In this document: positions 1-38,381 of the stretch, in pieces
Layout of the letters: each line of letters begins with the position of its first letter
Numbering within the stretch: the first letter of the stretch is position 1
Source of the DNA: Candidatus Zixiibacteriota bacterium
GTDB taxonomy: Bacteria; Zixibacteria; MSB-5A5; GN15; FEB-12
Direction: 5' to 3'
Length of the DNA stretch: 38,420 bases
NCBI GenBank assembly: GCA_034659895.1
Contig: JAYEIF010000208.1
Span: 1 to 38,420 of the forward strand
The notes under the pieces: generated by a model
The model's input: the letters and a program-made list of their open reading frames with translations, nothing else
Database searches by the model: none
What the model was told of the DNA's origin: nothing
Made by a program: the position numbers and the translations under genes

Positions 1-1074
1 ACTGCCAACGGTACCAAATCTAATGAGACCGTGACACTTGATGCTGCTGCTTCCTATGGATCTCTTTCGGATGTCGTGTCAGAGTTGAATAAAGATGCAA
101 CAGGGTTGGGGGGTGCAGCCTTTGGTGATGTTAAAGATGGTTCTGTGAATGACCTTGTTGCTTCTGTATACGATGATAACAAGATTCGGATTACCACTCG
201 CGATGAAGGCTCAGCTTATAGCATTCAAATGAATGCTGTAGGTACTAGTACTGGCGATCTCGAAACGTACTTAAATTTTTCTGAAGATGTGCTTGCAAAT
301 AACGGTATTGATGCCCGGGTCAGTTTTGATGAATATGTCAATACAATTGATACCGTCAATTATGCGAGTACTGGAACAACCACTCTTGCCACTGCAGAAT
401 TAGGTGATGCTAACCGCGGAACAATTTCAATGGTTGTCGCCAAGGGCTCCGGCGCTGGTGTTGAGCTTGGAGGTTCACTGCTTGATGTTACTGTTGCCCA
501 GTATGATGTCCGTCTCGACGGTGGACCGGCGCATAATATGTCGGCTGGATCTAACAACACAATTTATAATGCCGATCATACAGAATCCGCCATTGTGACT
601 TATGGACTGTCTTCGGCAGGAGGCACCGAGACGATTTCCAATGTGGATCGTTCATTGGTCTTCCAGATCGGCGGTAATGTTGGTCAGACAACAGAAGTCA
701 GTCTTCGATCAATGGCGGCTTCCTCTCTTGGGAATAACATATCTGGCAATTTGTATACATCGCTTGCCGGTATCGATGTTACTACGGTTCAGGGCGCACA
801 GGATTCGCAGTCGATTATTGACCAGGCAATTAATGAAGTGTCAACAACTCGTGGTACTCTTGGAAGTTTTCAGAAGAACACTCTGGATTCCAACCTGAGA
901 AATCTTCGAATTGCGTCACAGAACCTGATTGCTTCAGAATCACAGATTCGTGATACTGATATGGCCGCTGAAATGTCAGAGTTTACGAAACATCAGATTC
1001 TGCTTCAGGCTGGCACCTCAATGCTGGCTCAAGCTAACCAGGTTCCGCAGACAATTCTTTCTCTGTTCCGATAA
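1..1074 (+). CDS. fliC: Flagellin, 5'-truncated by the window edge
   Basis: Frame is open from base 1. Flagellin C-terminal signature FQIGGN...IDQAINEVSTTRGTLGSFQ...ASESQIRDTDMAAEMSEFTKHQILLQAGTSMLAQANQVPQTILSL; directly upstream of fliD. Confidence 0.95.
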   Translation, partial: TANGTKSNETVTLDAAASYGSLSDVVSELNKDATGLGGAAFGDVKDGSVNDLVASVYDDNKIRITTRDEGSAYSIQMNAVGTSTGDLETYLNFSEDVLANNGIDARVSFDEYVNTIDTVNYASTGTTTLATAELGDANRGTISMVVAKGSGAGVELGGSLLDVTVAQYDVRLDGGPAHNMSAGSNNTIYNADHTESAIVTYGLSSAGGTETISNVDRSLVFQIGGNVGQTTEVSLRSMAASSLGNNISGNLYTSLAGIDVTTVQGAQDSQSIIDQAINEVSTTRGTLGSFQKNTLDSNLRNLRIASQNLIASESQIRDTDMAAEMSEFTKHQILLQAGTSMLAQANQVPQTILSLFR

Positions 1075-1098
1075 GAACAGAAGAGTAGATAATAAATA

Positions 1099-1126
1099 CT
1101 TTGGGGGGGGGTTGCCTCCCCCAAAG
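1099..1126 (+). terminator. GC-rich hairpin after flagellin (probable terminator or mRNA-stabilising stem)
   Basis: CTTTGGGGG...CCCCCAAAG inverted repeat about 25 nt after the stop codon; no clear U-tract follows. Confidence 0.55.
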
Positions 1127-1197
1127 AGATTAGATTGAAAACGTCAGTACAATTTTTACTGGCGCGACATTGAAGTCAGGTATTACAGGAGTAAGTT

Positions 1198-3531
1198 ATG
1201 CCAGGCATTAATTCGATAGACGGCCTCAATTCCGGTTTTGACACCACAAGAATCGTTGATGCTATTATAAATGCTGAGCGTCAGGACGCTGTCCTTCTTG
1301 AATACGAAAAGACTGAAAAGACAAATGTAATAACCGCTTTTAAGGCATTTCAGGCTAAAGCACTTGCTCTAAGTGCGGCAGTTTCTCAATTAACCAACCG
1401 TTCTACTTTCAATGCGGCAACCGCTTCTGTTTCTGATGATTCAATTTTAACAGCGACAACTTCCGGACGAGTAGCTACCGGCTCGTATCAAATGCAGGTT
1501 ATGAATGTAGCGCGGAATCATCAAATTGCAAGCCAAGGCATTTCTGACAATGATGCGGGGATTATGGGGACGGGAAGTATAGAAATTCAGATAGGAGACG
1601 GCTCTCTTTACAATATCAATATCGACAGTAACAACAACTCGCTTGTGGGAATAAAGCAGGCAATCAATGATTCCAGTGTGGGAGTTACGGCATCAATTAT
1701 CAATGATGGGTCATCGTCTAATCCGTATCGCCTGATGCTGACTGCCGATAAGACAGGCCTGAGCAGTAAAATAGAAGTTACTTCCAATCTAACAGGCGGA
1801 ACAAACTTAAACTATACATCGGCGTTGTTTGACAGTCCGGAAATTATGTCATTTAATTCAGTCTCGGATTCGACTGTTTCACTTGATTCGATGGCTTCTT
1901 ACAGCGGTAATGAGAATAAAATATACTCGTTCACTGTCCTTGGCAGTGGAACTCAGACAGTCGGAACCGATGTAATAACAATTGAGTGGTCTGACGGCAC
2001 CAATTCCGGTCAAGTTAATGTTACGCAGGCAGACGCCGCGGTTGAATTGGTCGGCGATGGGGCGGACGGTCTTAAATTGAATTTTTCCACAGGTCAACTG
2101 ACAGCCGGCGATACTTTTCAGGTGTCTACTTTTGCCCCTCTTATTCAGGAAGCCTCGGATGCCAAGATATCCTTTGGCGCAGGCGGAGGCACTGGATCTC
2201 CAATTGTTGTAACTTCAGGAACGAATACTTTCGAGGATGTAATAGCGGGTGTTACGCTTAATGTTGCAAAAGTGACTCAGCCTGATGAATCTGTTACTAT
2301 TACTACTGATATTGATATTTCCGGAATAAAGTCAAAGGTGGATAATTTCATCAAGCGTTACAATAATGTGATGGATTATATCAGTGATCAGAATACTTTT
2401 GATGAGGATTCCGAAGAATCCGGTGTTTTGTTTGGAGAATCTTTACTGTGGACAATGCGCCATTCGATAAGTTCAGCAATTGGTTCAAAGATTGAGGGGA
2501 TGGACTCAGAGTTTTCGAATTTTTATTCTATTGGTATTCGCACTAATCTCGACGGCCATCTTGCGATAACTGACAACTCGAGGTTTGAGGATGCGCTTCG
2601 CAACAATTTGGATGAGGTAGTTGATCTGTTCACCGACGGCGGATCCGCTTCAAATAGCGATATTCAGTTTGTGTCCTCAACTACGGCAACAAAAGTTGGT
2701 GAAGATTATGAGGTAGATATTACAGCGGCGGCAACAAAGGGTGAAATGCAGGGAACCGCCATCAGTGATCCTGACGAAACTCCTCTGACTATTGATTCTT
2801 CCAACGACACTATTAAATTGAATGTCAACGGTCGCGAATCAGAAGAGATACGGTTGACCGCACGCACATATTCATCGTCTGATGAATTGGTCAATGAGAT
2901 TCAGAGTAAGATTGATAACGATGGACGCATTGGCTCTTACGGTGTGCAGGTAGAGTGGGTGGATGAAGGAAGCACTGGTTATCTGACATTTACAAGTGGC
3001 TCCTACGGCTCCAGTTCTACAGTTGAACGCATTACCTCTATTTCTGATTCAGCTTATGCCAGTCTTGGCTTAACCAATGCTACTTCAACTGAAGGAAATG
3101 ATGTGGCGGGCACTATCAACGGGGAAGAAGCTGAAGGGACAGGACAACTGCTGAAGGGAAAAGAAGATAATGAAACTACTGAAGGTTTAGTGCTCAGGGT
3201 AATGTTTGATTCGTCGGAGGTTGACGATAGCGTCGAGGGAACGATTACCATAACCAAAGGAATCGCCGCTCGTTTACGTGATAAGTTGTCCAGTTATACC
3301 AAATCTAACGTAGGTGCGCTTGACAGTAAGATAAAGAGTTACGAAACACAGATTGAGACTATAACTGAACGAGTTGAAGAGATTGACGAGCGATTGGTAA
3401 TGCGGCGTGAATCGCTGTTCCAGCGTTTCTACGAGATGGAGAAAACACTTGGCGAACTTAATTCCACAAAGGACTATCTTACGACACAATTGGAAAGTCT
3501 CAACTCTAATTGGATGTTTAATCAGAAATAA
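1198..3531 (+). CDS. fliD: Flagellar filament capping protein FliD (HAP2), long form
   Basis: N-terminus GLNSGFDTTRIVDAIINAER, central SNPYRLMLTADKTG, C-terminus RRESLFQRFYEMEKTLGELNS; position between fliC and fliS; SD AGGAG at 1187-1191. Confidence 0.93.
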   Translation: MPGINSIDGLNSGFDTTRIVDAIINAERQDAVLLEYEKTEKTNVITAFKAFQAKALALSAAVSQLTNRSTFNAATASVSDDSILTATTSGRVATGSYQMQVMNVARNHQIASQGISDNDAGIMGTGSIEIQIGDGSLYNINIDSNNNSLVGIKQAINDSSVGVTASIINDGSSSNPYRLMLTADKTGLSSKIEVTSNLTGGTNLNYTSALFDSPEIMSFNSVSDSTVSLDSMASYSGNENKIYSFTVLGSGTQTVGTDVITIEWSDGTNSGQVNVTQADAAVELVGDGADGLKLNFSTGQLTAGDTFQVSTFAPLIQEASDAKISFGAGGGTGSPIVVTSGTNTFEDVIAGVTLNVAKVTQPDESVTITTDIDISGIKSKVDNFIKRYNNVMDYISDQNTFDEDSEESGVLFGESLLWTMRHSISSAIGSKIEGMDSEFSNFYSIGIRTNLDGHLAITDNSRFEDALRNNLDEVVDLFTDGGSASNSDIQFVSSTTATKVGEDYEVDITAAATKGEMQGTAISDPDETPLTIDSSNDTIKLNVNGRESEEIRLTARTYSSSDELVNEIQSKIDNDGRIGSYGVQVEWVDEGSTGYLTFTSGSYGSSSTVERITSISDSAYASLGLTNATSTEGNDVAGTINGEEAEGTGQLLKGKEDNETTEGLVLRVMFDSSEVDDSVEGTITITKGIAARLRDKLSSYTKSNVGALDSKIKSYETQIETITERVEEIDERLVMRRESLFQRFYEMEKTLGELNSTKDYLTTQLESLNSNWMFNQK

Positions 3532-3569
3532 AATCTATATGGTGATAAATAATCATTGAAGGAGTAACC

Positions 3570-3998
3570 ATGGAAGGTAATCTAAAGACATATCGAGATG
3601 TTGAAACTGTCTCCAAATCGCAGATTGACCTCATACTGCAAGTCTATGACGGTGCCATTAAAGCTTACAATCAAGCGGCAGATTACTACAAAGTAAAAGA
3701 TTTTGATAAGGGCTACGAGCAACTCGAGCGTTCCAAGCGGTTTATTACTCATCTATATACAACTCTGGACGAGAAAAAAGGAGGAGAAGTAGCAGCTAAT
3801 CTTGGGAAACTGTATGCTTTCCTGCTTAATCAGACTGATTTTATTCAGGGGACGAAAGATTTGAAGGCTCTTGACGATAACATTAATATAATAAGTGAAC
3901 TTCGCCTGGGTTGGCAAGGGTTGAAAGATCAAGGGATAGAAGGACAGAATAATTCGGATAAATCACCAAACCCCGGCAGTTTTAGAGGATCGGCGTAA
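3570..3998 (+). CDS. fliS: Flagellin export chaperone FliS
   Basis: LILQVYDGAI and TLDEKKGGEVAANLGKLYAF, ELRLGW motifs; follows fliD. Confidence 0.93.
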   Translation: MEGNLKTYRDVETVSKSQIDLILQVYDGAIKAYNQAADYYKVKDFDKGYEQLERSKRFITHLYTTLDEKKGGEVAANLGKLYAFLLNQTDFIQGTKDLKALDDNINIISELRLGWQGLKDQGIEGQNNSDKSPNPGSFRGSA

Positions 3999-31071: not shown

Positions 31072-32274
31072 ATGAGTCTGTCCGGGAATCTAAAAACAGT
31101 GTCGTTTCCTGATATTCTGCAATTGTTGTCTACTGGAAAGAAAACTGGAATTCTTTCTGTTGAGACAGAAACACGAAAAAAGGAAGTAGCATTCAAGGAT
31201 GGTAGTATTGTGTACGCATCCTCAGTGAATTCGACAGAGGATCTTTTGGGAAATATGCTGCTTAACCAAGGGAAAATATCGAAATCCGATCTTGAACGCG
31301 CTATCACGTTACATCGTCAGACAGGACGTCAACTTGGCACCACACTGATAGATATGAAACTTTTTGACAAGGATGAAATAGCTGAGGTACTCAAACAGCA
31401 AATCGAAGAAATTGTTTATAATCTTTTCTCTTGGAGAGATGGTGATTTCACCTTTCGTGAAAATGAGAGCCCCAAGAATGCTCAATTTTTGGTAGCTCTC
31501 CCAACGATGAACGTTGTTATGGAAGGAACGCGACGGATTGATGAATGGATGGAAATACAAAAAGTTCTTCCACCTGATGATGTTATGTTGGCTATTTCCA
31601 AAGCGCCAAAGGTAAAGCGTGAAGAGGTTAAATTATCAATTGAAGAATTTCAGATTCTTGGACTAATTAATGGTGAGAGAACGATAGCTGATTTGATGGA
31701 CCAATCACCAATTGGAGAATTTGTTACATGTCGGGCAATCTACCGTTTAATAAATGGCAATCTGGTTAAATCTGTCGGCAGACGTGATATGGAGAAATCA
31801 CAGAAGGAAGATGAGGAAGAAGTCATTCTATCAATTATTTTCAAGCTGTATAATGTATGTTTTTACCGTATTAACGGTCTCTTTGAGGACGTTCTTGGTG
31901 ATGACAACAAGCTCTATCAATCCTTTGCCGCTCAATATAACAATGGACTGACAGCATTTTTCCCTGGTGTGGACCCCGCATCAAGCAGAGCGCCATCACT
32001 TGAACGCTTCATAAACGCTGTTAAGAAATTACCAGCTCCAATTCGTTTTCACAGGTTGATGCGTGATCTGGACAATATGCTTTCTGACAACCTACAATTT
32101 GTTTACCAACTGCTTGGAATTGGCATTTTCCATAGAAGTGTATCCTCAGTCAAAAGGGAAATTGCCGAGCCATTGGCTATGCGGCGGGAGCTTGTTAAGC
32201 GTTTTGGAGTTGAAGATAATTTCTATATGACAATAAAACGAGCCAACAAGACTGTCAAGTTGGTGAGGGGATAA
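31072..32274 (+). CDS. DUF4388 (PATAN-like) domain protein
   Basis: LSGNL....FPDILQLL..GKKTG.L, F.DG.IV.A, LG..L repeats, LFSW.DG.F.F, EG.RR.DEW, winged-helix-like LINGERTI.DL. Confidence 0.88.
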   Translation: MSLSGNLKTVSFPDILQLLSTGKKTGILSVETETRKKEVAFKDGSIVYASSVNSTEDLLGNMLLNQGKISKSDLERAITLHRQTGRQLGTTLIDMKLFDKDEIAEVLKQQIEEIVYNLFSWRDGDFTFRENESPKNAQFLVALPTMNVVMEGTRRIDEWMEIQKVLPPDDVMLAISKAPKVKREEVKLSIEEFQILGLINGERTIADLMDQSPIGEFVTCRAIYRLINGNLVKSVGRRDMEKSQKEDEEEVILSIIFKLYNVCFYRINGLFEDVLGDDNKLYQSFAAQYNNGLTAFFPGVDPASSRAPSLERFINAVKKLPAPIRFHRLMRDLDNMLSDNLQFVYQLLGIGIFHRSVSSVKREIAEPLAMRRELVKRFGVEDNFYMTIKRANKTVKLVRG

Positions 32275-32745: not shown

Positions 32746-33618
32746 ATGACAAGTATTTCCGAGATTGATGACCGAATAGCAAAATGTCGGAAGATTCTCG
32801 AAGCCGATCCGAATTCGCAGATTTTTGCTGCCCTATCTGATTCATATCGTAAGAAAGGTGAGTTTGATAAGGCATTTCATGTTTGCCAGGGTGGTTTGAA
32901 AATCCATTCTTCCTATGGAGCGGCTCATGTTGTCATGGCAAAGATTAATCTCGACCGCGGCTTGTATGATTGGGCTGAGTCTGAAGCCAAAAAGGCCGCT
33001 AAGATCGATGGCTGGACAAGGAATGTCGAATTGTTGCTGGCAGAGATATTAATCTATAAGGGAGAGTTTTCCGATGCCATAAAATTGTTGACTCGTCTTC
33101 GTCAATCTGACCCTAGTAACAATCATATAAAAAAGCTGTTGGATATTGCACGACATTTTCCTGAAGAGCAAGAAAAGATAATTGGAAAGTCTGCTTCTAA
33201 TGTCATCTCGTCAGACTCAAACAAAGATAAAGTTGATAATGTTGATAAGGGTTCAGAGACGGTTGAGGAATCTTCTCTTGATGCTGCTGGTTTGATAGAG
33301 CAGGCAATTGAAGTTGTTGGTATCAAAGGAGCTATGTTTGTCAATCTTGATGGGTTTATTATTGAATCCAAGTGGCTTTTGGATATGGATTCCACTCTGT
33401 TTGGAGCAAGTTTCAGTGAGATTATGGATGATCTCAAGGTTAAGTTATTTGAGAGTTCATTCGGACACCTTGAATTTGTTCTGATTGAGACAGAAGATCT
33501 AATTTTTTTGATTGCTCGAATGAAGGATGGATTGTTTCTTTTTGTCGCCGATGAAGACGTCAACTTAGGTACAGTCAAGATGAAAATTGAAAAACTTCTG
33601 AATGTTTACAGGTCATAA
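32746..33618 (+). CDS. TPR plus C-terminal roadblock/LC7 domain protein
   Basis: TPR helices (DPNS..FAALSDSYRKKG.FDKA...C..GL..H); C-terminal GIKGAMFVNLDGFII...FG.LE.VLIE...VNLG.VK. Confidence 0.8.
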   Translation: MTSISEIDDRIAKCRKILEADPNSQIFAALSDSYRKKGEFDKAFHVCQGGLKIHSSYGAAHVVMAKINLDRGLYDWAESEAKKAAKIDGWTRNVELLLAEILIYKGEFSDAIKLLTRLRQSDPSNNHIKKLLDIARHFPEEQEKIIGKSASNVISSDSNKDKVDNVDKGSETVEESSLDAAGLIEQAIEVVGIKGAMFVNLDGFIIESKWLLDMDSTLFGASFSEIMDDLKVKLFESSFGHLEFVLIETEDLIFLIARMKDGLFLFVADEDVNLGTVKMKIEKLLNVYRS

Positions 33619-33633
33619 AGGATACAGTTTGCA

Positions 33634-34623
33634 ATGAGAGTCAATGCGCGTAATATTCGTCAGATAGCAGTGTGGTCACTGGTTCTTCTTGTCCTGCCGA
33701 TTATATATTTTCCAGAAATGTTCGGCACTGATCTGGGGGGAATATCTTTTACCAGTATCCTGGTGGAACTGTTTTTCTACGGGATGGTCCTGTTTTTGTT
33801 TGAACGTAGTGCAACACTGAAGGATATATCACTTGGGACGGTTATCTGTCTTGGGTATCGACTAGTTCTTGGGTCATTACTGGGGCTAATCTTTTTTGTC
33901 ATATACTTTATGGATTTTTCGGTGTCTATGTCACTTTCTCTTGGTAGCTACTTGCCAGTAATCATTTTGCAGGCTCTCGCAACACCATTTATTTTACGAT
34001 CAGCACTTCGTGACTCTGTTTTTTCAAGTAAGGGACGCAGGTTTCATGAAAAATCACCTAAGGTGTACTCAGCTTCAGATAATACAAAGGAGATGACCAC
34101 ACAACCTCAAGTAGTATCTGTATCGCAGAATCGACAGCCCTCAGATTCTACTATCATTGAACCTGACAAGACAACTCGCGAGTTTAAGGTGAAGCATTCT
34201 AATAGTAGCAATACAAACGGTTTTGAGAATGCTACTAAGTATATTGGTGAGAATGGCTCAGTAAAGATGGCGGCGATTGTGGATAGTGAAGGCTTGTTGT
34301 TAGGGAATTTTGTGCGCGGTGGAATCGATCCCGAGGATTGGTCACCGTTGGCTCTTCTCTTTGAGGATAACAACAATCGGCTTCTGAACCGCACAGGGTT
34401 TGGGCAAGTTGAACGGATTGGATTGACAATGGACGATGTACGTGTGATTGTAGCACGTGAGGGAGTTTTTTGTCTGATGGTAGTTGCCGAACGTCAGCAT
34501 GATGAGGTTCTAAATGTAAGGATTGAACAAGCACTAGAGATGATTAGAAAATATACGGCGGAACGGTATAGCAATGTACTGTTTGTAAACGCGGAGAAGG
34601 AATATGTACGAAGTACTGAGTGA
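33634..34623 (+). CDS. Multi-TM membrane protein plus C-terminal roadblock/LC7 domain
   Basis: About 4 N-terminal hydrophobic helices, S/T/Q-rich linker, then VKMAAIVDSEGLLLG...G.G.VE.I.L...LMVVA. Confidence 0.78.
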   Translation: MRVNARNIRQIAVWSLVLLVLPIIYFPEMFGTDLGGISFTSILVELFFYGMVLFLFERSATLKDISLGTVICLGYRLVLGSLLGLIFFVIYFMDFSVSMSLSLGSYLPVIILQALATPFILRSALRDSVFSSKGRRFHEKSPKVYSASDNTKEMTTQPQVVSVSQNRQPSDSTIIEPDKTTREFKVKHSNSSNTNGFENATKYIGENGSVKMAAIVDSEGLLLGNFVRGGIDPEDWSPLALLFEDNNNRLLNRTGFGQVERIGLTMDDVRVIVAREGVFCLMVVAERQHDEVLNVRIEQALEMIRKYTAERYSNVLFVNAEKEYVRSTE

Positions 34624-34945
34624 ATTAAATAAGACAAGTGGTGTGACTGGTTCATTGGTTGTGGGGAATGATGGTATTGTTATAGCAGCAGACCTTGATT
34701 CCTCATATGAAGGGGAGACTGTTGGCGCTTTGGCGGCTTCAATTACGGCAAATATCCAGAAATCATTGAATCGTCTTAATTCCAGCCCTCAAAAGCAAGT
34801 CATGATAGAAGCTGACAAGGGAAAGTTGTTCTTTACGGATGCAGATTTGGGTATTCTGGTTGTAACAACAGCCCAAAAGGTTAATATAGGACTTATCAGG
34901 CTGGAAATTAAGAACGCTGTTGGTCAGTTAAGAATGAAAAAGTAG
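34604..34945 (+). CDS. Stand-alone roadblock/LC7 protein (MglB/MglC-like)
   Basis: L..L....GVTGSLVVGNDGIVIA, VGALAA, IEA..GK, VNIGLIRLE; overlaps the upstream gene by 20 nt. Confidence 0.9.
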   Translation: MYEVLSELNKTSGVTGSLVVGNDGIVIAADLDSSYEGETVGALAASITANIQKSLNRLNSSPQKQVMIEADKGKLFFTDADLGILVVTTAQKVNIGLIRLEIKNAVGQLRMKK

Positions 34946-34978
34946 GACAACGGGAATACTCAACGATGGGATCTGAGC

Positions 34979-36094
34979 ATGGTTTCGATTAATTATTCAG
35001 CACGAGAAGTATGCTGTAAAATTGTGTATTACGGCCCAGGATTGTCGGGCAAGACAACCAATTTGCAATATGTCCACTCGAAGGTGCCGGGGAATACTCG
35101 TGGAGACCTTATATCGTTAGCAACGGAGTCAGATAGAACACTTTATTTTGATTTTTTGCCAATTAACATTGGTACTATCAATGGCTTTGCTGCAAAGTTT
35201 CAACTGTACACTGTCCCCGGACAAGTTTACTACAATGCAACGCGTAAACTTGTGCTTCGCGGTGTGGATGGTATTGTATTTGTCGCTGACAGCCAGCCTG
35301 ATAAGATGGATGAAAACATTGAATCACTGGCTAACTTGGAAGATAATCTAATTGAGTACGGTTATGATATTAACACTTTACCGATGGTAATTCAGTATAA
35401 CAAGCGTGATTTGCCGGGAATACTGTCAGTTGAACAACTCAATGAGCAGCTCAACCCAGTGGGACGGCAGTTCTTTGAGGCTTCCGCGACAATTGGAAAT
35501 GGTGTATTTGACACGCTTAAATTGATAATCAAGTTGGTTCTGGATAAGGCGAAAAAAGCTGGTCAGAAGTCCACTCCAAAGGTTCAGGAGGTGAAGCCCA
35601 GCACTAAACAACCAGTTTCAGCTCAGCAACCGTTACCGAAGCCGGAAGCGTCATCACCTGAATCTTCAGTTTCTTCCTCAGCAGATGATTCTGCCGAGAC
35701 AGATTCTGCCGAGACAGATTCTGTCGAGAGCGTGCCACATAAGACCACTCGTCAGGATGGCGTGCCTTCAGTTTCCTCTGAGAGGGGGACTGAAAAACAG
35801 ACGAGGGAGACGGTGGTCGATAAAGAGCCATTACCCTCAGGGCAATATCGCCCTTACCCAGGAAATACACCTGTTCAGACAAAAGAAAAAAAGATTTCAG
35901 CGACAAAATTTTCACCGGGTTTGACTTCAGAGTCAAGTGAAAATGCTGCAGGACAGAAGGCTCTTCAAGCTAATAATGGTGATGCTGAACAATCCTCGGC
36001 AGAGGGGTATTCTCCATCAATGGCGCCGTCATTGCGACGAAGAACCGAAAAGAAAAAACGAGGGTTTTTTAAACGTTTGTTCGGAATTAAGTAG
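34979..36094 (+). CDS. mglA: MglA-family small GTPase with long C-terminal extension
   Basis: INY..REV..KIVYYGPGLSGKTTNL, DRTLYFDF, LYTVPGQ, QYNKRD, EASA...GVF.TL; about 180 extra residues follow the G domain. Confidence 0.95.
   Translation: MVSINYSAREVCCKIVYYGPGLSGKTTNLQYVHSKVPGNTRGDLISLATESDRTLYFDFLPINIGTINGFAAKFQLYTVPGQVYYNATRKLVLRGVDGIVFVADSQPDKMDENIESLANLEDNLIEYGYDINTLPMVIQYNKRDLPGILSVEQLNEQLNPVGRQFFEASATIGNGVFDTLKLIIKLVLDKAKKAGQKSTPKVQEVKPSTKQPVSAQQPLPKPEASSPESSVSSSADDSAETDSAETDSVESVPHKTTRQDGVPSVSSERGTEKQTRETVVDKEPLPSGQYRPYPGNTPVQTKEKKISATKFSPGLTSESSENAAGQKALQANNGDAEQSSAEGYSPSMAPSLRRRTEKKKRGFFKRLFGIK
35687..35731 (+). repeat. Three tandem 15-bp units (GATTCTGCCGAGACA) in the mglA tail
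   Basis: Encodes DSAET-DSAET-DSVES; two exact copies and one diverged copy. Confidence 0.92.
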
Positions 36095-36111
36095 CCACTA
36101 AGGAGGCATGG

Positions 36112-36603
36112 ATGACTGATAATAGTCTGATCCTCTATGAAGAGGAAATAAAACAGATTGACACTCTTATTTCAAAAATGCTTAAAGCTGCCGAGGCAAA
36201 GTGTGGTCTGCTCGTTGATAAGGATGGTCATTTGATTACCAGACAGGGGTTTACCAGCACATTGGATACTACAGCGTTAGCAGCGCTGCTTGCTGGTTCG
36301 TTTGCTTCTACAAAGGAAATTGCCAAACTTGTTGGGGAACCGGAATTTTCGGTTTTGTTTCATCAAGGGAAGAAAGATCATATACACATGTCGATTGTAG
36401 GCGAACGTTCTATCCTTGTGGTTATTTTTGATGATCGGACAACTATAGGGATGGTGAGATTGTATGCCAAGGAAACCGCTGTTGAACTCACCAAAGTGTT
36501 TGAAAAAGTGACTAACGATTCACGTGAAAAGACTCAAATTAGTGTTTCGAATGATTTTGCCGATGGAGCTCAGGACAGGCTTGACGACATCTTTCAGGAC
36601 TAA
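36112..36603 (+). CDS. mglB: MglB roadblock protein (GAP of MglA)
   Basis: L.LYEEE, LVDKDG.LI, DTT.LA.L.AG, LVGE.EF...FH.G.KD, LVVIFD.RT..G.VRL and an acidic C-terminal helix (LDDIF), as in Myxococcus MglB. Confidence 0.93.
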   Translation: MTDNSLILYEEEIKQIDTLISKMLKAAEAKCGLLVDKDGHLITRQGFTSTLDTTALAALLAGSFASTKEIAKLVGEPEFSVLFHQGKKDHIHMSIVGERSILVVIFDDRTTIGMVRLYAKETAVELTKVFEKVTNDSREKTQISVSNDFADGAQDRLDDIFQD

Positions 36604-36680: not shown

Positions 36681-38381
36681 ATGATAACAGATCTTGGGGC
36701 AATGCTGGTCAAAGCTGGTAAAGTTACGCCAGAACAGGTTGAGGAAGCTGAGACTACTGCCAAGCAACAAAATATCAAGATTGAAGCAGCTCTTGTACGT
36801 GTAGGAGCATTTGAATCTGAAGATGATATTTCCAAGATAATTGGAAAACAGCTCAAAATTGGTACGTTGCACCTTAAAGATATTGAGCTCAATCCTGAAA
36901 TAGTCAAGCTTATTCCCGTTGATATCGCCCGCAAATTCAAAGTTATTGCTGTTTCCAAACTAAACAAGATTCTTCTCGTCGCTATAAGTGACCCCAATAA
37001 TATATATGTACTTGATGCCGTGAAGTTCATTACCGGCTGTACAGTGCAACCGGTCATCTCCCCCGTGTCGGCAATCGAGAAAGCTATTGACACTTATTAT
37101 ACTGATAGCGGAGCACTTTCAGAGATTGTTAAGGGGATGGAGGATCAAGATGATCTCGAAGTCGTTGAGGCTGAAGATTTGCCCAACGAAAGCGACTTAA
37201 TGTCGGCGATACAGGACAAGCCATTAGTAAAGTTGGTGGACTCTATTATTGCTGATGCAATACGAATGGGTTCCTCCGACATTCATTTCGAGATGTATGA
37301 GAAACGCATTCGAGTACGTTACCGCATTGATGGTGACCTGCGTGAGATGGCGCCATTGCCTTTCAAATATAGGGGAGCAATTGTCTCGCGCTTGAAAATC
37401 ATGGCTGATCTCGATATTTCCGAACGTCGTTTGCCACAAGATGGACGCATAAAGATTAAAATCTCTGGGAGGACTGTCGATCTGCGTGTTTCGGTGCTAC
37501 CGACAATTTTTGGCGAGAAGGTGGTTATGCGAATTCTGGATCCGAACGCTCTTATGGTCGATATGACAAAACTCGGTTTCCGTAAGAATGATCTCAATAA
37601 ATTTCAGGAAGCTATCCATCTGCCTTTTGGAATCATTCTTGTGACCGGTCCTACTGGATCAGGTAAAACCACTACGCTATATTCAGCTCTTAAGCAGATA
37701 AATACAATAGATGTAAATATTATGACCGCAGAAGATCCGGTAGAATTCAACTTTGATGGCATAAATCAGGTAGCAGTAAAATCAAACATTGGTATGACTT
37801 TTGCTGCTGCGCTGCGATCGTTTCTGCGACAAGACCCTGATATCATCATGGTGGGTGAGATTCGAGATACGGAGACTGCCGAGATAGCTATCCGCGCCGC
37901 ATTGACAGGCCACCTTGTTTTTTCAACACTTCACACTAATGATGCTCCTTCAGCGATCAACCGCCTTATCGATATGGGAGTGCCGGGCTATCTGGTGGCA
38001 TCGGCTACAAAGTTGATTATGGCTCAGCGTATGTGCCGTAAGATATGCCAGTCATGCAAGGAAGAAATAAATCTTACAGCGGAGCAAGTCGAGAGTCTTG
38101 GGGAACTTCCAAAAGAACTAAAGCGCAATATACGAGCTTTCAAAGGTCGTGGCTGTCGTGAATGTAATAATACCGGCAAGTCTGGTCGAACAGGTATTTT
38201 TGAAGTCATGCCGATCACACACGCTATAGAAAACCTGATTTTTGAGAGAGCGACAGATTCTGAGATCCGACGAGTAGCTCTCGAAGAAGGTATGTATAGC
38301 CTTCGTATGAGTGCCATTGAGAAAATGAAGGCTGGTATTATAAGTATTGATGAGGTCTTCGCCGTATCTTTTGGTGCATAG
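36681..38381 (+). CDS. pilB: Type IV pilus assembly ATPase PilB (GspE family)
   Basis: SDIHFE, ERRLPQDG, GPTGSGKTTT, TAEDPVE, LRQDPD..MVGEIRD, GHLVFSTLH, CxxC...CxxC zinc motif. Confidence 0.92.
   Translation: MITDLGAMLVKAGKVTPEQVEEAETTAKQQNIKIEAALVRVGAFESEDDISKIIGKQLKIGTLHLKDIELNPEIVKLIPVDIARKFKVIAVSKLNKILLVAISDPNNIYVLDAVKFITGCTVQPVISPVSAIEKAIDTYYTDSGALSEIVKGMEDQDDLEVVEAEDLPNESDLMSAIQDKPLVKLVDSIIADAIRMGSSDIHFEMYEKRIRVRYRIDGDLREMAPLPFKYRGAIVSRLKIMADLDISERRLPQDGRIKIKISGRTVDLRVSVLPTIFGEKVVMRILDPNALMVDMTKLGFRKNDLNKFQEAIHLPFGIILVTGPTGSGKTTTLYSALKQINTIDVNIMTAEDPVEFNFDGINQVAVKSNIGMTFAAALRSFLRQDPDIIMVGEIRDTETAEIAIRAALTGHLVFSTLHTNDAPSAINRLIDMGVPGYLVASATKLIMAQRMCRKICQSCKEEINLTAEQVESLGELPKELKRNIRAFKGRGCRECNNTGKSGRTGIFEVMPITHAIENLIFERATDSEIRRVALEEGMYSLRMSAIEKMKAGIISIDEVFAVSFGA

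Follow-up and report, generated by a model that had tools for sequence, protein, structure and literature searches.

An extended mglA gene lies in a Roadblock-MglA-MglB-PilB cluster

The stretch of DNA analysed here (the window; 38,420 nt of contig JAYEIF010000208.1 of a Candidatus Zixiibacteriota bacterium) carries an mglA gene towards its end, within a cluster that also encodes Roadblock-domain proteins, a TPR protein and the type IV pilus ATPase PilB (Table 1). The mglA frame is the sole open reading frame listed at its position, and its translation agrees with that in the first-pass annotation of this DNA. The order Roadblock-MglA-MglB-PilB is conserved: among 48 related loci, mglB lies on the same strand in all 48, the small Roadblock/LC7 gene directly upstream of mglA is present in 47 and pilB in 46. 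MglB also matched NF052242 with 100 bits, under the 200-bit cut-off of that model. The 329-residue protein was considered as a further Roadblock-domain protein and rejected, as its Robl_LC7 match (E 0.074, 13.2 bits) lies below the cut-off of 23 and BLASTP gave no match between it and the 113-residue Roadblock protein.

Table 1 Genes and features in and around mglA. Coordinates are positions in the window; residues are those of the MglA protein.
Feature	Coordinates	Strand	Remarks
DUF4388 protein with MshE-related c-di-GMP-binding motif	31072..32274	+	DUF4388 125 bits; NF053729 49.7 bits (cut-off 38)
TPR protein, C-terminal Roadblock-like domain	32746..33618	+	TPR_19 34.6 bits; Robl_LC7 22.2 bits, just under cut-off 23
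329-aa protein, hydrophobic N-terminal half	33634..34623	+	transmembrane-like by eye; sub-threshold Roadblock match at 208-284
113-aa Roadblock/LC7 protein	34604..34945	+	56.4 bits
mglA	34979..36094	+	371 aa
MglA G domain, residues 1-196	34979..35566	+	G3 motif TVPGQ, T78-Q82; R53 in DRTLYFDF
Low-complexity, probably disordered linker, residues 197-344	35567..36010	+	from composition, alignment and AF2
Tandem repeat, 15 nt x 2.9	35687-35729	+	inside linker; encodes SAETD repeats
Conserved island YRPYPG, residues 290-295	35846..35863	+	within linker; possibly a docking motif
Semi-conserved island KKISATKFSP, residues 304-313	35888..35917	+	consensus KKISP..F.P (KKIS..F.P)
Conserved MAPSLRRR, residues 348-355	36020..36043	+	hydrophobic patch and start of basic run
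Basic run and MinD-type C-terminal segment, residues 353-371	36035..36091	+	proposed membrane-binding core 361-371
MglB (Roadblock/LC7)	36112..36603	+	17 nt past mglA stop; preceded by AAGGAGG; Robl_LC7 49.9 bits
PilB, type IV-A pilus assembly ATPase	36681..38381	+	TIGR02538 696.6 bits (cut-off 675.65)

The length of the frame could stem from a gene call that is fused or frameshifted, or from misassembly, an explanation that we rejected as having practically no chance of being right: the same layout, its conserved end in frame, recurs in 119 other database proteins and at 48 genomic loci, contigs of two further samples from the same study span positions 34900-36200 without indels, and mglB follows with its own Shine-Dalgarno sequence.

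By sequence comparison, residues 1-196 are a true group 1 MglA G domain. Among PDB chains, M. xanthus MglA (6h17_A) aligns end to end with residues 3-196 (262.9 bits, E 4.2e-77) and T. thermophilus MglA (3t12_A) matches the G domain with 240.5 bits; the next best match after the MglA chains, to Arl8/Arl10, reaches 29 bits. The Pfam Arf and Ras models both score above their cut-offs on this domain. Thr replaces Asp in the G3/PM3 motif (TxxGQ, within LYTVPGQ at residues 76-82), a substitution described as a defining feature of MglA (PMC3000849). The predicted arginine finger R53 and catalytic glutamine Q82, residues whose roles in MglA have been described (PMC4316618), are both present and, together with T78, V79, P80 and G81, are invariant in an alignment of 56 sequences. 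This protein is the single MglA copy of its genome, which is 98% complete.

At 371 residues, the protein departs from the single-domain form of about 190-200 residues (at most 240 in the survey of PMC4316618). MglA chains in the PDB are 195-203 residues long; those proteins therefore end directly after the G domain, as had been stated for Myxococcus MglA in the first-pass annotation. The start that it gave for the extension, position 35551, lies near residue 191, where the last helix of the G domain ends.

A variable linker contains conserved islands

Residues 197-344 differ sharply in composition from the G domain, with 53% versus 24% S/T/E/P/Q and 13.5% versus 38.8% hydrophobic residues. In the alignment, which comprises 56 of 120 homologues, the majority-residue fraction is 0.17-0.34 in linker blocks 201-290 as against 0.45 in block 301-310. 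The richness in S/T/E/P/Q noted previously thus stands, but the stretch is about 150-156 rather than 165 residues long, and it is not featureless, as it holds conserved islands. R291, P292, P294 and G295 of the first island are invariant in the alignment; RP[YF]PG is present in all 120 best database matches, and the YRPYPG island in all 47 full-length open reading frames retrieved by a DNA pattern scan (see below). Closer to the end, P346 is invariant and M348, A349 and P350 reach at least 90% in the same alignment, and M[AS]P occurs inside the last 30 residues of 117/120 best database matches. Because of the islands YRP[YF]PG, KKIS..F.P and MAP[SP]LRRR, the tail reads as more than a tether. 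Their range is limited: none of the 12 tails examined in families f3, f5 and f9-f20 of the phylum has YRPYPG.

An AF2 model built from the 56-sequence alignment renders the tail as coil (block pLDDT 45-63) with one short helix at residues 363-368 (pLDDT about 60). The model is of low confidence, with a mean pLDDT of 56.7 and values under 50 even for G-domain residues 1-95, and the helix is therefore weak evidence.

Conserved islands without an assigned role would suit an Arf-like switchable anchor, in which the C-terminal helix or MAPSLRRR/YRPYPG docks on the G domain and masks the anchor in one nucleotide state, the other state sets the anchor free, and membrane binding is thereby tied to the GTP cycle; coupling of an amphipathic helix to the nucleotide state has a precedent in Asgard and eukaryotic Arf, as described in PMC11914678. 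We consider such an arrangement quite unlikely for the window protein, as approximately 165 residues of variable linker separate the putative anchor from the G domain, most families of the phylum lack the tail islands apart from the C-terminal end, and the low-confidence AF2 model contains no confident packing of the tail.

The C-terminal end resembles the MinD membrane-targeting sequence

The last 19 residues of the protein read RRRTEKKKRGFFKRLFGIK, directly followed by the stop codon, and the last 27 residues carry a net charge of +9. E. coli K-12 MinD, translated from NC_000913, ends in ...EEEKKGFLKRLFGG, so that the ending KKGFLKRLFGG given in the first-pass annotation is correct. RGFFKRLFGI and the MinD end KGFLKRLFGG are identical at 7 of 10 positions, and the motif, followed by only two residues, lies at the extreme C-terminus in the window protein. 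In the genome that the window comes from, a C-terminal 20-mer with a charge of at least +6 and at least two aromatic residues is found in 18 of 1907 crude open reading frames, and the MinD-type pattern occurs in this frame only. Judged by these comparisons, the likeness of the MglA end to the MinD ending exceeds chance. No protein of the same genome reaches the MinD family cut-off (best 85.7 bits versus 212.9).

Scanning the DNA of 185,579 species genomes with the degenerate pattern K[RS]GFFK[RS][LF]FG returned at least 119 stretches. Among the 119 listed, 48 encode MglA with the tail; in another 30 the MAP-type tail is the same but the G domain lies beyond the retrieved DNA. Five are true MinD proteins of other bacteria, which end in the 10-mer K[RS]GFFKRLFG at their extreme C-terminus (E 1e-39 to 1e-130 versus E. 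coli MinD). From the other 36 stretches, 30 were scanned, yielding the C-terminal ends of six penicillin-binding transpeptidases and of an FtsY-like SRP54 protein. The peptide thus appears to be a portable end module, carried by membrane-associated proteins as well.

The E. coli MinD peptide has been described as a transplantable membrane-targeting tag (PMC5471200) and as an amphipathic helix whose FL and KR positions are important (bioRxiv 10.64898/2026.10.05.756812); the window peptide reads FF and KR at these positions, and the hydrophobic residues of its core fall at i, i+1, i+4 and i+5. Its helical moment of 0.72 is reached by 28% of shuffles of the same 16 residues, and that of the validated MinD peptide, 0.69, by 31%; as the validated peptide also does no better than its shuffles, this test has no power here. 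On the Eisenberg scale, the moment of the last 13 residues is low (0.20). A rough interfacial energy, calculated on the Wimley-White scale, is -2.44 kcal/mol versus -1.55 kcal/mol for MinD.

The ending is conserved in sequence among close homologues and in chemistry across the phylum

Nearly all of the 120 best database matches, the window protein included, end in [KR]RGF[FLIW][KRN][KR]L[FL]G-x-x-stop (119/120; tails of 124-204 residues), and 110 have the exact sequence RGFFKRLFG. In the alignment of 56 homologues, the majority-residue fraction of the last 11 residues is 0.88-0.97, well above that of the variable linker, in line with the earlier expectation of a conserved end on a diverging tether.

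In the phylum of the window (named Zixibacteria in our source), the G domain was found in 270 of 285 genomes, and 148 of the 150 listed matches sit in open frames of 313-459 residues. The exact tail is present in 145/285 genomes, belonging to 4 of 20 families. The 17 copies that we read, from 11 families, all have a basic run followed by an aromatic/hydrophobic end of different sequence, three of them (family f2) being close variants of the window's ending. In each of the 17, the best 9-mer on the Wimley-White scale scores -1.75 to -6.1 kcal/mol with a net charge of +6 to +9; -1.5 kcal/mol or lower together with a charge of at least +5 is reached by 13/1907 crude open reading frames of the genome to which the window belongs. 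The i, i+1, i+4, i+5 hydrophobic pattern is kept in 120/120 close homologues and in 15 of the 17 copies; the end-type classifiers were written after the data had been seen, and by one of them even E. coli MinD comes out negative. Short MglA proteins of the phylum were set aside: the closest database entries of short length resemble fragments cut off at contig ends, and one entry of 195 residues, P0381, may be either a fragment or a genuine short form.

A parallel design is apparently present in MglA proteins named as Fibrobacterota (297-660 residues), 114/120 of which end in the same hydrophobic pattern preceded by a basic run. A quick tree of 75 G domains did not place the putatively anchored Zixibacteria and Fibrobacterota forms relative to each other, and since its groups were set by tail type, their clustering is partly circular. 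Another G-domain clade of MglA has a C-terminal transmembrane-like helix, and further MglA clusters end in 'RRAA' or in acidic residues.

That the chemistry is kept as the sequence diverges is more readily reconciled with lipid binding than with a specific protein site. Among the closest families, however, the near-invariance of RGFFKRLFG goes beyond what generic lipid binding would need, and a specific partner could be responsible. The C-terminal segment would then be a docking motif for MglB, Roadblock-domain proteins, PilB or the G domain, its resemblance to MinD being convergent; the other short conserved islands, above all YRP[YF]PG in 120/120, look like docking motifs too, and several Roadblock-domain proteins and the TPR protein are encoded in the same cluster. 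We regard docking as unlikely: across the phylum the end sequence changes freely with its basic and aromatic/hydrophobic content kept, which is unusual for a specific interface, and the identical 10-mer ends true MinD and unrelated proteins of other phyla that lack these partners.

The same charge and aromatic content bear on binding of another polyanion. Basic-aromatic peptides can bind nucleic acids, and a tail of charge +9 might bring MglA to the nucleoid or, through polyphosphate, to granules. This is highly improbable, because the end has its matches in a validated lipid-binding peptide and in actual MinD endings rather than in a known DNA-binding motif, and because the hydrophobic spacing is kept at the frequencies given above in close, phylum-wide and Fibrobacterota-named homologues.

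A putative membrane anchor on the MglA GTPase

Taken together, these sequence features make it probable, in our judgement, that this MglA-type polarity GTPase, the only one in the organism, is equipped with a peripheral membrane anchor of its own. Its G domain would act as a normal MglA switch, paired with the MglB encoded alongside, and would be joined by the roughly 150-residue low-complexity, probably disordered linker to a C-terminal module in which a small hydrophobic patch (MAPSL) is followed by basic residues (RRR..KKKR) and then by GFFKRLFGI, a short amphipathic segment of the MinD membrane-targeting type. The basic run would be drawn to anionic lipid head groups and the F/F/L/F/I face of a short helix would enter the inner leaflet, keeping MglA on the cytoplasmic membrane. 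With a rough rms reach of about 9 nm, the linker could let the G domain meet MglB, Roadblock-domain proteins and effectors, possibly at the type IV pilus base; the gene for PilB, the ATPase of this machine, belongs to the same conserved cluster. Membrane-based patterning with MglB is speculation.

MinD is described as binding membranes stably only as an ATP-bound dimer (bioRxiv 10.64898/2026.10.05.756812), and one copy carried by a monomeric GTPase might therefore hold too weakly. A rough argument to the contrary comes from the additional basic run and from an interfacial energy more favourable than that of MinD. We know of no MglA dimer comparable to the ATP-driven MinD dimer. Our literature search found no paper describing a MinD-type anchor on MglA.

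Discussion

In the textbook contrast, eukaryotic small GTPases are held on membranes by lipid or helix anchors, whereas MglA is a soluble single-domain protein placed by its partners. MglA with a putative built-in anchor of a validated kind occurs throughout a phylum and apparently in another as well, and membrane-anchored small GTPases may thus not be a eukaryote-only invention. If the anchor works, it would provide a simple bacterial model for the roles of tether length and anchor strength in surface GTPase signalling, would point to another means by which type IV pili may be positioned and would make the MinD-type peptide a portable module far beyond the ParA/MinD ATPases. A wider proposition, which we put forward tentatively and think unlikely to be right, is that membrane tethering of MglA-family GTPases is widespread in bacteria and arose more than once, through basic-amphipathic ends in Zixibacteria and Fibrobacterota and a transmembrane-like helix in another clade; MglA, its GAP MglB and membrane-associated Roadblock proteins would then form a self-organising membrane polarity system, like Min or Cdc42 patterning, that positions the type IV pilus motor with no need for the polar landmark proteins of Myxococcus.

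The MglA proteins of M. xanthus and T. thermophilus (6h17, 5ymx, 3t12) share with the window protein the full-length G domain, the TxxGQ motif, the intrinsic arginine, an adjacent mglB gene and a link to type IV pilus genes. They stop at 195-203 residues without a membrane anchor and are brought to the poles by partner proteins, whereas the window protein adds approximately 175 residues with a MinD-type end. An extension is also part of the 'group 2 MglA2' of Fremgen et al. 2010 (PMC3000849), for which that paper offers no interpretation, and the later main comparative survey of MglA (PMC4316618) left out sequences above 240 residues.

With the MinD membrane-targeting sequence, the window peptide shares its position at the extreme C-terminus, its 7/10 identity and an F/L-K-R-L-F core. 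In MinD, this sequence sits on a ParA/MinD ATPase with a deviant Walker A domain, which is absent here; the carrier is instead a Ras-like GTPase, attached through a probably disordered linker of about 150 residues. The window peptide also follows a strong basic run, with a net charge of +9 versus +1 for MinD over the last 25 residues.

Among eukaryotic GTPases, K-Ras4B has a polybasic anchor, and Rit and the RGK GTPases have lipid-free basic/aromatic tails. The first-pass annotation had seen in the MglA tail a counterpart of the Ras hypervariable region. The comparison holds as an analogy, in that, as in K-Ras4B, a variable and probably flexible C-terminal region leads to a putatively membrane-binding basic cluster, but it goes no further, because residues 197-371 contain no Cys and the protein ends in ...LFGIK without a CAAX box. 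Unlike K-Ras4B, the window protein would therefore not be prenylated; its linker is several times longer, and its origin appears independent.

A further comparison is with Arf/Sar1 and the Asgard Arf proteins, which are likewise small GTPases with amphipathic-helix membrane binding, proposed here for MglA, that requires no transmembrane segment; for Asgard Arf, a membrane-binding helix on a prokaryotic small GTPase has been shown experimentally (PMC11914678). According to the same source, the Arf helix is N-terminal and packs against the G domain until GTP binding releases it, whereas the helix predicted in the window protein is C-terminal and far from its G domain.

A MglA G domain with a long tail and a MinD-like end

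The MglA protein encoded in the window gives, over its residues 3-196, gapless alignments with M. xanthus MglA (6h17_A, also residues 3-196; 262.9 bits, E 4.2e-77) and with T. thermophilus MglA (3t12_A; 240.5 bits), and after MglA chains the nearest solved structures are Arl8/Arl10, at ~29 bits. The MglA hallmarks are present: TVPGQ replaces DxxGQ and R53 lies within DRTLYFDF, and neither varies across 56 aligned homologues. Solved MglA chains comprise 195-203 residues, and the 175 further residues that follow the window G domain are therefore extra. Residues 197-344, presumably disordered, are rich in S/T/E/P/Q (53%, versus 24% in the G domain) and poor in hydrophobic residues (13.5% versus 38.8%). 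This linker includes a tandem repeat (15 nt x 2.9, 96% matches, 35687-35729) encoding SAETD repeats, as well as one position, 35635, with an A>G difference in a contig from another sample. The protein ends in SPSMAPSLRRRTEKKKRGFFKRLFGIK, with a net charge of +9. The ORF, G-domain alignment, composition and C-terminal sequence thus bear out the first-pass annotation of a MglA with a low-complexity tail and a MinD-like end; the linker is of low complexity as it had described, with a measured length of ~150-156 rather than 165 residues.

Features of the MglA gene cluster in the window
Feature	Position	Strand	Remarks
DUF4388 protein with c-di-GMP-binding motif	31072-32274	+	MshE-related NF053729, 49.7 bits (cut-off 38)
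120-aa ORF	between DUF4388 and TPR proteins		no family
TPR protein with Roadblock-like end	start 32746
329-aa protein	33634-34623	+	hydrophobic N-terminal half (transmembrane-like by eye); two genes upstream of mglA
Roadblock protein, 113 aa	start 34604		between 329-aa protein and mglA
mglA	34979..36094	+	single ORF, 371 residues
MglB	start 36112		after mglA; preceded by AAGGAGG
PilB	start 36681		TIGR02538, 696.6 bits (cut-off 675.65)

Parts of this arrangement recur at 48 related loci, which carry a same-strand MglB (48), a small Roadblock protein (47) and PilB (46), and a link between this MglA and the pilus may be proposed. The DUF4388 protein at the head of the cluster hints at c-di-GMP input. 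The C-terminal part of the 329-aa protein matches Roadblock/LC7 below threshold (E 0.074); if this match is real, a Roadblock protein integral to the membrane would stand next to a membrane-tethered MglA. Genes for flagellin, FliD and FliS are found at 31-3998 (+) in the same window, and the organism appears, from its genes, to have the coding capacity for both flagella and type IV pili.

The end is conserved among close relatives while the linker varies

Among the 120 best database matches of 320-400 aa, a set that includes the window's own protein and whose named members are labelled Zixibacteria, 'FCB group' or 'bacterium', the tail measures 124-204 residues (median 165.5). All but one (119/120) end in [KR]RGF[FLIW][KRN][KR]L[FL]G-x-x-stop, and 110/120 carry RGFFKRLFG exactly. 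In an alignment of 56 of these matches, the majority-residue fraction was 0.97 over the last 11 residues (0.88 for the final K), 0.70-1.00 in the G domain and 0.17-0.34 in linker blocks 201-290. A constant end behind a changing linker, which the first-pass annotation had put forward as a check, is therefore what these homologues display (0.88-0.97 versus 0.17-0.34). The tail is nevertheless more than a tether, because it contains conserved islands: YRP[YF]PG (R291, P292, P294 and G295 invariant), KKIS..F.P and MAP[SP]LRRR. The first of these was found in 47/47 full-length ORFs from the pattern scan.

Across the phylum the chemistry of the end is kept and its sequence drifts

A MglA G domain was detected at E <= 1e-20 in 270/285 species genomes from the 20 families of the phylum (195/198 of those of good quality), nearly always as one copy per genome. 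Open frames of 313-459 residues hold 148 of the 150 phylum matches listed, the other two being split across contigs. A 40-residue query of the window tail matched 145/285 genomes, by family f1 102/107, f2 9/14, f4 32/33 and f9 1/6, with no match to this query in the other 16 families. Seventeen copies, drawn from 11 families (f2, f3, f5, f9, f10, f11, f13, f14, f16, f17 and f20), were read individually. Each has a low-complexity tail, roughly 130-250 residues long, that ends in a basic run and an aromatic/hydrophobic segment of differing sequence, for example KKKKKVFFLFRWFSRDKD, RKKTSFWRKLFSWK, KGKKKSGLFGWLKGKKQ and SIWGKFWWRWIRKIVDRR; the three f2 copies are close variants of the window ending, and the 12 tails from f3, f5 and f9-f20 lack the YRP[YF]PG island. 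A 195-aa database entry (P0381), 85% identical to the G domain, stops right past it on a 4-kb contig, and may represent either a genuinely short MglA or a truncated gene.

By Wimley-White interfacial values, the best 9-mer scores -2.44 kcal/mol in the window protein versus -1.55 in E. coli MinD, and -1.75 to -6.1 kcal/mol in the 17 phylum copies, whose last 25 residues carry a net charge of +6 to +9. In the window's own genome, 13/1907 crude ORFs reach <= -1.5 kcal/mol together with >= +5. That the nearest families conserve the exact sequence beyond the need of lipid binding alone weighs against a membrane anchor. Across the phylum, steady chemistry with drifting sequence is what a lipid-binding end would predict, and it is chiefly on this ground that we argue against a specific site of protein docking.

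Other carriers of the MinD-type peptide

A scan for DNA encoding K[RS]GFFK[RS][LF]FG, in one genome per species (185,579 species), yielded at least 119 stretches, and full flanks were obtained for 80 of the 119 listed. Of these 119, 48 encode a MglA G domain with tail, and in a further 30 the tail is likewise of this MAP type and the G domain lies beyond the sequenced stretch examined. Five encode true MinD proteins that finish with the motif (E 1e-39 to 1e-130 versus E. coli MinD), recorded as a Campylobacterales MAG, Caldimonas mangrovi, a Magnetococcales bacterium, an Igneacidithiobacillus MAG and an Acidithiobacillus strain. The remaining 36 are other proteins, 30 of which were compared with Pfam: six penicillin-binding transpeptidases carry the motif close to the C-terminal end, another protein is FtsY-like (SRP54), 11 matched no Pfam family, and among the rest are a secretin, a radical SAM protein and several proteins in which the motif is internal. 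Cell-wall enzymes thus also carry the MinD-type peptide at their C-terminus. It is a portable end module, borne by MinD, by MglA and also by further proteins working at membranes.

The six transpeptidases (stretches L022, L026, L028, L036, L055 and L058), recorded as Bacteroidetes, Agriterribacter, Acidobacteriota, Bryobacteraceae and Cyclobacteriaceae, have KKRGFFKRLFG and then a few basic residues as their end. In the FtsY-like protein (SRP54 and SRP54_N; Ruminococcus MAG, L057:1479-2873, minus strand), KKRGFFKRLFG lies seven residues before the end. At least two of the 36 other stretches, L081 and L085 (KSGFFKSFFG; open frames 10 and 62 aa long), are degenerate and probably chance matches. 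Two tailed MglA loci (L047 and L069) lie on short contigs of 2.9 and 8.6 kb from MAGs whose titles name Candidatus Acidoferrum and Candidatus Deferrimicrobium, and the titles of 15 more read 'uncultured Ignavibacteriales/Ignavibacteriaceae'; such names may be a product of binning or labelling, not of a genuine spread beyond Zixibacteria.

Long MglA proteins beyond the phylum

When only the G domain was used to search the full library, 6816 proteins matched (E <= 0.001). Each of the best 150 cluster representatives has between 225 and 717 residues, with the G domain N-terminal in nearly all; since few clusters take in the short MglA proteins, representatives give no proportions of long versus short forms. 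By end-type classifiers written after seeing the data, of which the amphipathic one scores E. coli MinD negative through its charge rule, these 150 comprise 40 basic-amphipathic, 21 transmembrane-like and 89 other ends, compared with 13 basic-amphipathic and 227 transmembrane-like among the 1907 ORFs of the own genome. One large group of long MglA is named Fibrobacterota (five named entries: Chitinivibrionales, Chitinispirillaceae, Fibrobacter sp.), with 297-660 aa, P/Q-rich linkers and ends like MYFTSVNTDRQRKKIKRPVNPKTKPQGGFLSKFFNKDKP; within the last 18 residues of 114/120 Fibrobacterota-named proteins, hydrophobic residues follow an i, i+1, i+4, i+5 pattern. Among short MglA proteins that are clearly complete, the nearest (192 and 202 aa, 61-69% identical) carry the name Gemmatimonadota.

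In a quick tree of 75 G domains, in groups defined by tail, each tail type falls within one G-domain clade, without the tree fixing how the Zixibacteria and Fibrobacterota tailed forms are related. The transmembrane-like ends (21 of the best 150 representatives: P0154, P0167, P0169, P0174, P0178, P0188, P0191, P0196, P0204 and others) form one clade (SH-aLRT 99). Another long type (P0195, P0201, P0203, P0206, P0214, P0218 and others) has a conserved C-terminal region ending in RRAA with a recurring P-V-x-L-x-P-E-D-L, and a further type (P0189, P0202, P0212) has an acidic D-S-P-F-I-D-L-Q-P-F-R-G-V-D end.

Proposed membrane anchoring and likeness to MinD

We consider it probable that the window MglA tail is a peripheral membrane anchor. 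Electrostatics would draw the basic run to anionic lipids, where the F/F/L/F/I face would insert into the membrane as a short helix. The linker would allow the G domain to meet partners close to the membrane, over a distance that a rough random-coil estimate puts at ~9 nm (rms) and ~59 nm (contour). Against such an anchor, the helical moment is no better than that of shuffles, for the window MglA end and MinD alike, the AF2 model is poor, and one MinD-type peptide on a monomer may be weak. In the openly accessible literature on MglA or Zixibacteria we found no description of this anchor; there, neither the peptide FFKRLFG nor Zixibacteria together with MglA gave a match.

The window's own genome (2.36 Mb, 98% complete, one MglA) has no MinD at the family cut-off, the best ParA-like match scoring 85.7 bits versus 212.9, and the MinD-type peptide there therefore sits on MglA, not MinD. 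KGFLKRLFGG is given as the E. coli MinD membrane-targeting tag, a tandem pair of which was used to tether a foreign protein (PMC5471200), and MinD residues 253-270 are described as an amphipathic helix, with binding predicted to be lost in an FL-to-GG variant and an eight-residue truncation and weakened by KR-to-AA (bioRxiv 10.64898/2026.10.05.756812, 2026 preprint). E. coli K-12 MinD, translated from the genome as our reference, ends in EEEKKGFLKRLFGG, identical to the window RGFFKRLFGI at 7/10 positions, and the FΦ-KR-LF positions of the MinD peptide are kept exactly in the window MglA tail.
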